Source of the DNA: a virus | Lineage: Duplodnaviria > Heunggongvirae > Uroviricota > Caudoviricetes | Reading direction: 5' to 3' (one strand) | Virus record (IMG/VR): IMGVR_UViG_2740892234_000001 | Coordinates: 1-15,732 of that record | Length of the DNA: 15,732 nt | Shown here: positions 2,622 to 4,511 of the stretch, in pieces | Numbering within the stretch: the first letter of the stretch is position 1 | Layout of the letters: each line of letters opens with the position of its first letter | The notes under the pieces: generated by a model | What the model saw: the letters and a program-made list of their open reading frames with translations, nothing else | Databases searched by the model: none | Told to the model about the DNA's origin: nothing | Position numbers and translations under genes: made by a program

Positions 2622-2713
2622 TTGTATCTATTTATTTTCCAATAAATACAATTGGTTATGTGTTTTTAGGTGGGGCGATCGTGAGGCAAAGAAAAACCGG
2701 CGCTGAGGCCGGG
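2622..2713. repeat. Conserved terminator-containing flank, copy 1 (near-identical copy at 6625-6713)
   Basis: CAATAAATACAATTGGTTATG..GTGAGGCAAAGAAAA.CCGGCGCTGAGGCCGGG shared between both immunity regions directly downstream of the cI-operon cargo genes. Confidence 0.8.
2686..2713 (-). terminator. Rho-independent terminator ending the cI-cargo operon
   Basis: Minus strand: CCGGCCUCAGCGCCGG hairpin (5-6 bp GC stem) followed by UUUUUCUUUG; begins 1 nt after the stop at 2714. Confidence 0.55.
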
Positions 2714-3316
2714 TTAATGCTGGGGAGTGATTTTTTTGTTGTCTGTTGGCTGGGTATTTTGTGGCGGCGCTTGCAAAGGTGCGTGGTCTGACTTTAAAGC
2801 TGATACCAGCCCGGGAATCGCAACTATTACAGCGATAATGACACTAAAAATGGCTAATCGTATAGAAATACCCGACTGAACACCACTAATTGCGGTATTA
2901 ACCCCTGTTATTTGTCCTTGAATTCCTTCGAATCTCCCATTAATTGCTTTTAAATCGCCAGCAGCGCTATCCATTTTTCCATCGATCTTGGACGATAGAG
3001 AGCTTATGGCCGCATTAAGTGATGCAAATTGGACATTAACGCTTTCACGAGATAGAGCCATGTCAGCCCTAATGGAAGAAGCAATAGACTCCATCTCTGC
3101 TTTATTAGCAGCTAAGCGAGCATCAAGTTCCTCTCTGCTGATCGTTCCCACTTCTTCCTCCGTTTGTGGCGGTTTTATGTAATTATTTTGCACCTTGGTG
3201 GGAGAATTATCAAATTCAGCCTCAAAATCGGAACCGCCAACAACCTTCAACCTCCGGCTTTCAGATATGTTGGTGTCTTGCTTTCCATGATTATTTAAAT
3301 TGCTGTCGTCACTCAT
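2714..3316 (-). CDS. Hypothetical tail-anchored membrane protein (200 aa): polar N-terminus, long coiled-coil region, single C-terminal TM helix
   Basis: ORF 2714..3316; start overlaps upstream stop (ATGA coupling); hydrophobic stretch LAIFSVIIAVIVAIPGLVSAL near C-terminus; occupies the rexB position but is not RexB (lambda RexB is 144 aa with 4 TM segments). Confidence 0.7.
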   Translation of the reverse strand: MSDDSNLNNHGKQDTNISESRRLKVVGGSDFEAEFDNSPTKVQNNYIKPPQTEEEVGTISREELDARLAANKAEMESIASSIRADMALSRESVNVQFASLNAAISSLSSKIDGKMDSAAGDLKAINGRFEGIQGQITGVNTAISGVQSGISIRLAIFSVIIAVIVAIPGLVSALKSDHAPLQAPPQNTQPTDNKKITPQH

Positions 3317-3747
3317 AATAGCTCTACGGTGAAAAATGATTCATTTTTATGAAGTTCATTTTTAGGGTCTTCATTATCTTGCAATCTCCCTATAACACTA
3401 TACAGCCCTTTAGCTGGGACCCTAATTTCTTTCAATGTTACTATTACCTGTCCGCCAACCCCTGTTTCAAAATGGCTATCTTTCGTATCGATGAAAAGTG
3501 AAACTGATTCCGAAGAGCCGTCAGGGAATTGAATTTCCTCACCTTTTTTTATAATTAGGTGCGCGGGGATTACCATAATACCCAAATTATATCTTGAATT
3601 TGGTTTCAACCCGATCATACCAACCCTGAAATCAATTGATAGCCGCGCAGGAAATTCATTGCATGTAAAATTAAGCGTCGGTTGGTTGGGTTCTTCGCTG
3701 CTATCAAATGGGGTTATAAAAGATATTCTTTCTAAATTAAGTGCCAT
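3313..3747 (-). CDS. Hypothetical soluble protein (144 aa from ATG 3747; 162 aa if started at ATG 3801 overlapping the cI stop)
   Basis: ORF 3313..3801; internal ATG at 3747 has a strong AGGAGA Shine-Dalgarno 5-6 nt upstream; no TM segment; occupies the rexA position but is not RexA (lambda RexA is 279 aa). Confidence 0.65.
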   Translation of the reverse strand: MALNLERISFITPFDSSEEPNQPTLNFTCNEFPARLSIDFRVGMIGLKPNSRYNLGIMVIPAHLIIKKGEEIQFPDGSSESVSLFIDTKDSHFETGVGGQVIVTLKEIRVPAKGLYSVIGRLQDNEDPKNELHKNESFFTVELL

Positions 3748-3797
3748 AAATTCTCCTGCATCGCTGTATGCTCTACGAGCATCTCGGCGACTTATCA

Positions 3798-4511
3798 TCA
3801 CCCAAACGTCTCTTCAGGCCACTGACTAGCGATAACTTTCCCCACAACGGAACAACTCTCATTGCATGGGATCATTGGGTATTGTGGGTTTAGTGGTTGT
3901 AGGAACACCTGACCGCTATCCCTGATCAGTTTCTTGAAGGTAAACTCGTCACCACCAAGTCTGGCTATGCAGAAATCACCAGGCTCAACAGTCTGCTCAG
4001 GGTCAACAAGAATTAACATCCCGTCAGGAAAGCTTGGCTTGTAGCCTGTTGGTGCGGTCATGGAATTACCTTCAACCTCAAGCCAGAATGCAGAGCCACT
4101 GGCTTTTTTAGTTGTGCTTACCCATTTCTCCGCATCACTTTTGGTAAAGGTTCTAAGCTCAGGCGAGAACATCCCGGCCTGAACATGAGAAAAAACAGGG
4201 TACTCATACTCACTTCTAAGTGACGGCTGCATACTAACCGCTTCATACATCTCGTAGATTTCTCTGGCGATTGAAGGGCTAAATTCTTCAACGCTAACGT
4301 TGAGAATTTTTGCAAGCAATGCGGCGTTATAAGCATTTAATGCATTGATACCATTAAATAAAGCACCAACGCCTGACTGCCCCATCCCCATCTTGTCTGC
4401 GACAGATTCCTGAGATAAGCCAAGTTCATTTTTCTTTTTTTCATAAATAGCTTTAAGGCGACGTGCGTCCTCAAGCTGCTCTTGTGTTAACGGTTTCTTT
4501 TTTGCGCTCAT
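3798..4511 (-). CDS. cI: CI repressor (lambda immunity), 237 aa
   Basis: [70 protein letters not shown]... matches lambda cI nearly residue-for-residue through the C-terminal ...SQWPEETFG. Confidence 0.97.
3801..3824. repeat. cI 3'-end junction motif CCCAAACGTCTCTTCAGGCCACTG (functional cI terminus here; relic copies at 8803-8826 and 8433-8447)
   Basis: 24-bp identical string at 3801-3824 and 8803-8826; a 15-bp core CCAAACGTCTCTTCA also at 8433-8447. Confidence 0.85.

Follow-up and report, generated by a model that had tools for sequence, protein, structure and literature searches.

In the window, a 15,732-nt stretch of DNA from a virus of the Caudoviricetes, two small overlapping genes, orfA and orfB, occupy the place that rexA and rexB hold in phage lambda. 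As judged by alignment, the pair is a precise cassette replacement of rexA/rexB within an immunity region that is 97% identical to that of lambda. Its role can be proposed with less firmness. The two genes would form a mobile accessory unit (a moron), expressed as part of the repressor operon of the prophage, whose most likely effect, exerted at the inner membrane, is to shield the lysogen from other phages; we hold this reading with somewhat less than even confidence.

The lambda-type character of the immunity region, which an earlier note had read directly from this DNA, is borne out, with cro 100% and cI 97% identical to their lambda counterparts and OL and OR both present. Identity to lambda is 97.2% between cI and the beginning of O, and 88% over the nutL-OL-Timm segment. 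Between these two stretches, homology to lambda breaks off where cI terminates (stop codon, window 3797) and resumes at 2716, the stop codon of both lambda rexB and orfB. A leader of ~50 nt around the AGGAGA sequence belongs to the cassette; lambda homology ends before it. The lambda-type cI is followed by orfA and then orfB, up to Timm (Table 1), and both the ORFs and the lambda alignment confirm the earlier claim that a two-gene operon replaces rexA/rexB between the cI stop and the terminator. The HK542 record carries the Timm label for the matching terminator as well as annotation of the OR, pRM and pR features. In a scan of the minus strand, no terminator was found between cI and Timm, and the sole terminator-like site from cI to pL lies at 2712-2697, directly after the orfB stop. 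A promoter-like site inside orfB (3213-3185) was dismissed, as the region has 3 such sites against 4.9 expected by chance.

The translation signals described for orfA were likewise all found: a 144-aa frame with the AGGAGA Shine-Dalgarno sequence at ATG 3747, and an alternative start (GTG 3801 or ATG 3798) that reaches into the cI stop codon and would lengthen the product to 162 aa. Homologues from other genera, located behind other repressors, begin at the position of ATG 3747 (143-144 aa), and RefSeq calls orfA at 144 aa too. The orfA stop and the orfB start overlap in the sequence ATGA, which points to translational coupling.

Table 1. Features of the cI-orfA-orfB operon and its flanks (window positions)
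Feature	Positions	Strand	Basis and remarks
cI repressor, 237 aa	3798..4511	-	First gene of the operon; 97% identity to lambda cI; Pfam HTH_3 and Peptidase_S24
Shine-Dalgarno AGGAGA for orfA	3752..3757	-	Direct reading; precedes ATG 3747
orfA, 144 aa	3313..3747	-	ORF call; phrog_5893
orfB, 200 aa	2714..3316	-	ORF call; phrog_5820
Timm-type intrinsic terminator	2687..2712	-	Stem CCGGC...GCCGG and T run; ends the cI-orfA-orfB transcript
pL / OL1-3 region, downstream of the cassette	2468..2540	-	TTGACA-17-GATACT at 2496-2468 by promoter scan
OR / pRM / pR region, would drive the operon in the lysogen	4520..4590	.	pR-like site 4559-4587

Neither gene encodes RexA or RexB, in agreement with what had been claimed. 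BLASTP of both products against lambda RexA and RexB gave only E > 0.1 (E >= 0.16), and the PADLOC RexA and RexB models, which recognise the lambda proteins at 9e-110 and 8.6e-61, respectively, matched neither. Neither product is thus a RexA homologue, and OrfB has one hydrophobic segment rather than the four TM segments of RexB. What the pair does have in common with RexAB is its position between cI and Timm on the same putative transcript, as indicated by gene order, by the flanks and by the lack of an internal terminator.

OrfB is predicted to be a tail-anchored coiled-coil membrane protein. Its earlier description as a translationally coupled 200-aa protein with a coiled-coil-like region and a single C-terminal TM helix is upheld by the ATGA overlap, hydropathy, heptad pattern and AF2 model. 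Residues 1-57 form a variable, disordered N-terminus bearing the motif RRLKVVGGSDFEAEFDNS. The coiled coil spans ~58-139, with 70% hydrophobic a/d positions in the best heptad register vs 42% overall, and the one hydrophobic segment lies at 154-172 (KD19 = 2.7). The AF2 model, which is weak (pLDDT 57.2), folds residues 61-139 into one long helix and 150-174 into the TM helix. Between coiled coil and membrane, the juxtamembrane segment 125-152 is invariant and rich in Gly, Ser, Thr and Gln; the stretch GIQGQITGxNTAISGxQSGIS beside the TM is invariant, and G138, G145, Q147, S148, G149 and S151 are invariant alignment columns. The C-terminal tail (174-200) is Pro/Gln-rich. OrfA fits the role of soluble partner assigned to it earlier, having no hydrophobic segment (maximum KD19 = 1.0). 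It may be a soluble all-beta protein with an Ig-like sandwich fold, a tentative assignment because the AF2 model with its 7 strands is poor (mean pLDDT 48.8). Both AF2 models were built before the richer 23-sequence orfA alignment existed.

The two proteins had been described as unrecognised, but the pair was already deposited in 2007 and is not new as sequence, and each gene falls in a PHROG family without known function: orfA in phrog_5893 (E 3.6e-50 over 136/140 profile positions) and orfB in phrog_5820 (E 4.7e-74 over 186/200). At the nucleotide level, orfA-orfB is 96.8% identical to genes c104-c105 of HK542 and HK244, which are labelled hypothetical proteins in the immunity-region records of Degnan et al., 2007 (GenBank EF120458 and EF120457). 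The cI-N interval had already been described as a hotspot of mosaic diversity that holds rexAB and bstA (PMC8585504 and PMC7067206, each with reference to Degnan et al., 2007). No functional study of the genes was found in the literature by phage name, accession or topic.

Searches for characterised relatives gave little. No characterised homologue of either gene was found in Pfam, NCBIfam or PDB, and neither matched any family at E <= 1 among the 5027 PADLOC-DB 2.0 models, which represent established and candidate defence proteins, the BstA model included; orfA matched nothing in Pfam, PADLOC or NCBIfam. The alternative partners and short tail-anchored proteins described below likewise had no PADLOC match. 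PDB sequence searches and Foldseek against PDB yielded nothing for orfB. PDB profile-search matches with three profiles (TRPM7, oestrogen receptor and haemagglutinin coiled coils) were noise. Pfam Baculo_PEP_C (PF04513) matches orfB with 21 bits (E 3.8e-4), below the gathering threshold of 38 bits; the match is of the coiled-coil type and carries no functional inference. Some homologues have been auto-named after this family. ClyA-type alpha-pore-forming toxins also fell below any threshold against orfB (SmhB E 0.015, MakE E 0.033; 13 bits, cut-off 360), and the likeness may be one of composition only.

Both genes are real, as far as conservation can tell. OrfA and OrfB are conserved at 62-79% amino-acid identity and constant length across Klebsiella, Enterobacter, Citrobacter and Phytobacter. 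The pattern is one of purifying selection in qualitative terms only: dN is 0.25-0.28 between genera, where synonymous sites are saturated, and close E. coli copies have zero synonymous differences, so that a dN/dS ratio is unusable. The pair is present in only 49 of 5426 complete E. coli genomes, and orfA relatives number only 24 representatives among 1.84 billion proteins. A profile search of contigs returned merely 2 loci because that collection holds one genome per species. Prophages of STEC and poultry E. coli are among its carriers.

The genomic company of the cassette is more telling. In 48 of 52 loci, the orfB relative follows a repressor gene in the same orientation, although many of the 52 are near-identical E. 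coli prophages and hence not independent. The repressors that head such operons are of at least 10 types, both S24 and short CI/RacR-like. Loci away from repressors include one that adjoins dinI (L006) and one inside a baseplate gene cluster (L062). The orfB relatives pair with at least four unrelated upstream partner families, each of which matches its own motif in the OrfB N-terminus, one-to-one. Shared ancestry of orfA with the partner families of 98-101 aa and 96-97 aa was ruled out (hhalign probability < 1%), whereas these two may be distantly related to each other, on a match that is not significant. Conversely, behind relatives of orfA at 21-30% identity there is again an overlapping gene whose product is a tail-anchored coiled-coil protein. 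Homology of orfB to the short GGGNGGG-type tail-anchored proteins was not supported: hhalign aligned the TM only (probability 17%). phrog_9415 weakly matches both OrfB (E 4e-4) and a short partner (E 6e-4). Two small overlapping genes travelling as a unit, a partner matched to a specific OrfB motif and a membrane-active architecture would also suit a toxin-antitoxin-like addiction module, in which OrfA neutralises a membrane toxin OrfB, prophage loss kills or harms the cell so that the pair is retained, and any anti-phage effect is secondary; yet some orfB relatives (L013, L049) stand directly behind a repressor with no partner ORF detected, no known TA family in Pfam, PADLOC or NCBIfam is similar, and a repressor promoter in place of autoregulation is atypical of type II systems; this is the least probable of the alternatives.

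The slot itself suggests a different function. Between flanks that are 92-99% identical, it holds RexAB in lambda, a BstA-family gene in PhiR5_2 (PADLOC BstA match, E 2.5e-20, between lambda-type flanks), an NYN-domain protein in ev099 and a 933W-type Stk kinase. The window has a second, 933W-like immunity region with a 153-aa ORF and the Stk kinase, and an IMG/VR locus (L018) differs from this region only in that orfA-orfB replaces the 153-aa ORF and stk. Expression from the repressor transcript and a documented role in exclusion are common to RexAB, the 933W kinase and Hex (PMC3564112), and BstA is a repressor-linked abortive-infection gene (PMC8585504). Because the cassette is allelic with RexAB, BstA-like and Stk genes and stands behind many repressor types, phage exclusion appears to be its most likely function. 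The earlier proposal of an exclusion or abortive-infection candidate thus keeps its support from the slot, the logic of co-transcription, the soluble-plus-membrane architecture and the comparative context, but gains none from homology to a defence family. Our own leading, if tentative, view is that orfA-orfB is expressed in the lysogen and acts at the membrane as an exclusion or abortive-infection module whose cytosolic partner can be exchanged.

Association of this kind falls short of proof, and Hex of phage 434, which occupies the same slot, is also a regulator of induction. It stabilises lysogeny by preventing the RecA-mediated cleavage of the repressor, with spontaneous induction ~30-fold lower, and is toxic upon over-expression besides its exclusion function (PMC3564112). 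By this precedent, the pair might tune lysogeny and induction or the lysis timing of its own prophage rather than act on foreign phages, either through a Hex-like effect on repressor cleavage or through a tail-anchored coiled-coil protein of XhlA type acting on holins. The position beside the repressor at most orfB loci and the general XhlA-like layout of OrfB, a coiled coil and then a C-terminal TM, are in keeping with such a role. Repressors with and without the S24 cleavage domain share the cassette, however, which argues against a repressor-specific mechanism, and the cassette also occurs away from repressors, beside dinI and among baseplate genes. Haemolysin XhlA (PF10779) has no Pfam match to orfB at E <= 1, and its profile reaches only E 0.63 with a short partner. 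We consider this explanation improbable, albeit the best placed of the alternatives to exclusion.

A role in host fitness unrelated to phages is a further, still less probable explanation. ElaB and YqjD are tail-anchored ribosome-associated proteins, and lambda bor and lom are lysogenic conversion genes; a moron of either kind, serving the envelope, stress or virulence conversion, would be expected to be expressed in the lysogen. The predicted membrane protein with its periplasmic Pro/Gln-rich tail agrees with this, as does the presence of the pair in STEC and poultry E. coli prophages. In the Pfam scan, however, nothing resembled Bor, Lom or DUF883-type proteins, few of the E. coli genomes counted above carry the pair, and rapid partner swapping together with allelism with exclusion genes fits conflict with other phages better.

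If the cassette does act in exclusion, a sequence of events can be outlined. cI, orfA and orfB would be made from one pRM/pRE transcript ending at Timm, a layout that is read directly while expression from it is expected. OrfB would insert tail-first into the inner membrane, leaving its ~150-residue N-terminal part in the cytoplasm, and would oligomerise through the coiled coil. Cytosolic OrfA, as a beta-sandwich, would bind the short motif in the disordered OrfB N-terminus; such binding is proposed because partner families and motifs match one-to-one and the genes are translationally coupled. A cue from an infecting phage would then alter the complex, and the core of coiled coil, Gly-rich juxtamembrane segment and TM would perturb the membrane. 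From slot and architecture, abortive infection through depolarisation or leakage might result; that the entry of DNA is blocked is less likely. A more ambitious version, which we regard as possible though unlikely, is that these genes represent a new modular abortive-infection family, in which a conserved tail-anchored effector, made up of coiled coil and Gly-rich segment, is tethered through its disordered N-terminal peptide to a cytosolic receptor that can be exchanged. Ig-like OrfA, or any of three or more unrelated small proteins, would perhaps serve as this receptor, and a phage product that binds the receptor would free the effector, which would then permeabilise the inner membrane. That partner and adaptor peptide are swapped jointly, thereby retargeting the system, is conceivable to the same limited degree.

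An exclusion system of this type would constitute a defence family invisible to current catalogues. Its carriers are lambda-immunity and 933W-like prophages in pathogenic E. coli, and relatives extend across Enterobacterales. It would also offer a compact two-protein model of a cytosolic receptor controlling a tail-anchored membrane effector, for which natural "domain-swap" variants exist in the form of four partner families and the adaptor motifs that match them. Since immunity regions that are 97-99% identical carry RexAB, BstA-like, Stk or orfA-orfB, their protective spectra are directly comparable. Should the role of the pair prove to be a Hex-like tuning of induction, it would bear on the stability of Stx prophages.

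Among the closest known systems are the c104-c105 genes of HK542 and HK244, which share the location in phages with lambda immunity and are surrounded in the records by annotated Timm, OL and OR; OrfB has 206 aa there and 200 aa in the window, where the Pro/Gln tail is 6 residues shorter. XhlA-type and other tail-anchored coiled-coil phage proteins (PHROGs 6324, 6136, 3556 and 9415) share the layout of variable N-terminus, coiled coil and C-terminal TM, and are found behind distant OrfA relatives; these families are without known function. 933W Stk and BstA are alternative alleles to orfA-orfB within the repressor operon, but they are an unrelated kinase and an unrelated DNA-associated protein, both cytoplasmic and without a membrane component. 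434 Hex, likened by position and description, is read from the pRM transcript immediately behind the repressor gene, which it overlaps, whereas it is a single protein with no membrane anchor shown and its activity lies in inhibiting RecA-stimulated repressor cleavage. Lambda RexAB shares the slot that opens at the cI stop codon and closes at Timm, the predicted co-transcription with cI and the division into two genes for one soluble and one inner-membrane product. The two pairs nonetheless have no sequence similarity: RexA has 279 aa and OrfA is a 144-aa, probably all-beta protein, while RexB packs four TM segments into 144 aa and OrfB carries a single C-terminal TM behind a coiled coil.

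The lambda-type immunity region of the window encodes cI, orfA and orfB on the minus strand and bears out the earlier note, which had read it as lambda-type: cro matches lambda cro at 100% identity, N is 97% identical, and DNA identity is 97% from cI through cro and cII into the start of O. Homology to lambda breaks off with the stop codon of cI (window 3797) and restarts at 2716, the stop codon of lambda rexB and likewise of orfB, from where it runs at 88% through the Timm terminator, OL and nutL. These breaks define the replaced unit exactly: it starts behind the cI stop and extends to the final stop codon ahead of Timm. 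The gene layout is as first described, with an AGGAGA Shine-Dalgarno sequence before the orfA ATG, an alternative start overlapping the cI stop (GTG 3801 or ATG 3798), and translational coupling of orfB, whose ATG overlaps the orfA stop in ATGA. Homologues of orfA in other genera and behind other repressors start at the position of ATG 3747, and the RefSeq call is also 144 aa. The hairpin behind orfB is the sole terminator-like site between cI and pL on the minus strand. Within the 5' part of orfB, a weak sigma-70-like site (3185-3213, minus strand, TTGATA-17-CAAAAT, 9/12 matches) superficially recalls lambda pLit; it was rejected as a promoter, such sites being within chance expectation and full-length OrfB not resulting from it.

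Positions of the cassette, its surroundings and related loci (window coordinates unless a locus is named)
Feature	Position	Strand	Remarks
167-aa ORF	1467-1970	+	phrog_1244, function unannotated; C-terminal CxxC...CxxC
pL	2496-2468
Terminator-like hairpin	2712-2697	-	GC-rich stem and T run, 3' of orfB stop
orfB	3316-2714	-	200 aa
orfA	ATG 3747, stop 3313	-	144 aa
AGGAGA in the leader	3757-3752	-	leader ~50 nt, begins immediately 3' of cI stop codon
cI	3798-4511	-	237 aa, 97% identical to lambda cI
pR	4559-4587
N (second region)	5841-6224
Ser/Thr kinase, eukaryote-like	6880-7926	-
153-aa ORF	7920-8381	-
DUF3024 gene	8449-8790; L018 3158-3499	- (window)	directly after 933W-like repressor
S24 repressor, 933W-like	8851-9558	-
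Short tail-anchored proteins	L065 4420-4788; L068 4407-4721; L062 4425-4751
L062 insert	3607-5056		GCA_020881405.1
CxxC partner of orfB relatives	L043-L046, about 3480-3890		phrog_4293, function unannotated; Enterobacter-type prophages
97-aa partner and orfB relative	L006 4016-5699		Yersinia, GCA_028838025.1

Hydropathy analysis finds no hydrophobic segment in OrfA and exactly one in OrfB (154-172), matching the single C-terminal TM helix originally proposed. The AF2 model of OrfB has a disordered N-terminus, a long helix (61-139), a TM helix (150-174) and a disordered tail, and its best-fitting heptad register fills 70% of a/d positions with hydrophobic residues, as against 42% overall, as in a coiled coil. 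Any fold assignment for OrfA is tentative. The slot encodes neither RexA nor RexB, as had been stated: BLASTP against both gives E > 0.1, and the PADLOC RexA and RexB models, which detect the lambda proteins at 9e-110 and 8.6e-61, do not match the pair.

The statement that neither protein was recognised holds for characterised families but not for the ORFs themselves, which share 96.8% identity with HK542c105/c104 and the equivalent HK244 genes; the records of these immunity regions annotate pRM, OR, OL and Timm. HK542 and HK244 are the only ones of 50,697 phage records to encode orfB, and the whole pair occurs in 49 of 5426 complete E. coli genomes, always annotated "hypothetical protein". 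Both match PHROGs of unannotated function (orfA phrog_5893, orfB phrog_5820). Pfam gives no family for orfA and a sole, sub-threshold, coiled-coil-type match for orfB (Baculo_PEP_C); NCBIfam yields nothing meaningful, PADLOC gives no match, three profiles searched against PDB sequences are without a match too, and no paper on the function of either gene was found. At 50% clustering of 1.84 billion proteins, orfA has only 24 representatives, nearly all stand-alone and of 137-153 aa, the rest being giant Ig-repeat proteins (He_PIG, PKD, Big) that match in part, by way of a G-x-Y-x-V type motif. A profile search with orfB recovers 59 clusters, exclusively from Enterobacterales (including Escherichia, Klebsiella, Enterobacter, Citrobacter, Cedecea, Leclercia, Serratia, Yersinia, Pantoea, Pectobacterium, Xenorhabdus, Morganella and Salmonella); no cluster has a known domain fused to it or an informative name. 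In lambdoid phages the interval between cI and N, where rexAB and bstA are found, is already known as a hotspot of mosaic diversity (PMC8585504; PMC7067206; both cite Degnan et al. 2007). Replacement of rex by other genes and these two ORFs are already on record. What is new is that the pair matches no characterised family or defence catalogue; new too are the modular way in which partner, adaptor motif and a conserved tail-anchored core combine in a network, its occurrence behind repressors of many kinds, and its allelism with cassettes of the RexAB, BstA-like and Stk types.

The gene that directly precedes orfB varies between loci. It belongs to the orfA family in 36 loci, and elsewhere to families of 98-101 aa, 96-97 aa, or 112-135 aa with two CxxC pairs, which suggest a zinc ribbon; no partner ORF was detected in two loci. 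Profile-profile comparison relates orfA to neither the 98-101 nor the 96-97 aa family (probability <1%). The variable OrfB N-terminus sorts cleanly by partner, carrying R-x-L-[KR]-V-[VI]-G-G-[ST]-x-F with the orfA family, a T/L-x-Y...P...LP type motif with the 98-101 aa family, SSSGxAYSNVIGLD with the 96-97 aa family and YLRAVPNCGSG with the CxxC family. Whatever the partner, the core is kept: S/T-R-E-E-L-x-A-x-L-x-x-N-K-A-E, DGK heptads, the invariant Gly-rich juxtamembrane segment GIQGQITGxNTAISGxQSGIS and the TM helix. Behind distant orfA relatives (21-30% identity), too, overlapping genes encode tail-anchored coiled-coil proteins: L069 has a clear orfB homologue, and L065 and L068, in each case in a cI-to-N slot, have short proteins of 104-122 aa bearing a GGGNGGGxDM motif. 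A similar protein of 108 aa, with a distant orfA relative (P0059) and two other small ORFs, forms the L062 insert between an E217_GP41-like gene and an Apex/hub gene of a myovirus baseplate cluster, so late operons, too, can harbour the pair as an insert. The three short proteins share GGGNGGG[SDG]DM just N-terminal of the coiled coil, match PHROGs 6324, 6136 and 3556 (function unannotated), and resemble OrfB in architecture, only the TM aligning with it. This co-variation, together with the neighbours of distant orfA relatives, suggests that the upstream protein would bind the membrane protein's N-terminal peptide, both being exchanged together.

The most likely reading, though a tentative one, is that orfA-orfB is a lysogen-expressed, membrane-acting exclusion module, carried as an accessory cassette of repressor operons. 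What the sequence shows directly is the operon layout with its translational coupling, the one C-terminal TM helix of OrfB, its coiled coil and conserved Gly-rich segment next to the membrane, the mobility of the cassette, the co-variation of partner and adaptor, and allelism with exclusion genes. Since OrfB has no signal peptide and about 150 residues before its TM segment, it would be N-in and tail-anchored; OrfA would bind its N-terminal motif, the trigger may be a phage-derived cue, and the output may be membrane permeabilisation. Similarity of OrfB to alpha-pore-forming toxin subunits is sub-threshold and carries little weight. Such a module may act by abortive infection or by blocking DNA entry.

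Of 58 loci with orfB relatives, gathered from IMG/VR, genomes and metagenomes, 52 were analysable, and in 47 of these the first or second gene upstream of the orfB gene, on its strand, encodes a repressor-family protein. This count overstates independence because many E. coli loci are near-identical; the diversity of the repressors does not. One further locus has the repressor three genes upstream. At least 10 types occur, including lambda cI, a 933W-like cI and RacR-like repressors adjoining ydaS/ydaT, and all ten repressors checked against Pfam are HTH_3 plus Peptidase_S24 or short Phage_CI_repr/HTH_3. No repressor was found upstream in L048 and L051-L053. In L006 the 97-aa partner and an orfB relative adjoin a dinI-like gene, with no repressor found in 4 kb upstream; L007 and L008 have the identical pair behind an S24 repressor. 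A Hex-like role in the stability of the prophage or the timing of lysis is improbable, since the repressors ahead of the cassette include some that have a cleavage domain and some that lack one, and the cassette is also found away from repressors. A host-fitness moron unrelated to phages is somewhat more doubtful, and a toxin-antitoxin-like addiction pair is the least probable. As a candidate exclusion module, orfA-orfB is a well-defined and cheap experimental target, though it will not surprise specialists.

The 167-aa ORF exactly fills the lambda sieB position, lambda homology stopping at 1460 and restarting at N (1963); it has no SieB similarity and no Pfam or PADLOC match, and this position may be a second swapped exclusion slot. 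Ten N at 5295-5304 mark the window as a scaffold joining two different prophage segments, not one contiguous prophage: on the left the lambda-immunity region ends at the opening codons of an O-like gene, and on the right lies an unrelated 933W-like early region with a second immunity region and repressor operon (5841-9558, minus strand). For the DUF3024 protein, PADLOC gives a match to its candidate family PDC-S43 (E 7e-42 for the L018 copy, 99% identical to that of the window), and the DUF3024 gene stands between repressor and orfA-orfB in eight IMG/VR loci. L018, an IMG/VR locus 99% identical to the second region on both sides, carries orfA-orfB in place of window 6716-8409, exactly where the window has the unassigned 153-aa ORF and the kinase. 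In other phages, lambda-type flanks 92-98% identical enclose RexAB (lambda, SfI), a BstA-family gene (PhiR5_2, PADLOC E 2.5e-20), an NYN-domain protein (ev099, 2B8) or an unassigned 345-aa protein (mEp332). RexAB excludes T4 rII, 434 Hex excludes P22, and the 933W kinase, co-transcribed with cI, aborts HK97 infection (PMC3564112). By this sharing of slots, at least three exclusion functions documented by experiment are alleles of orfA-orfB.
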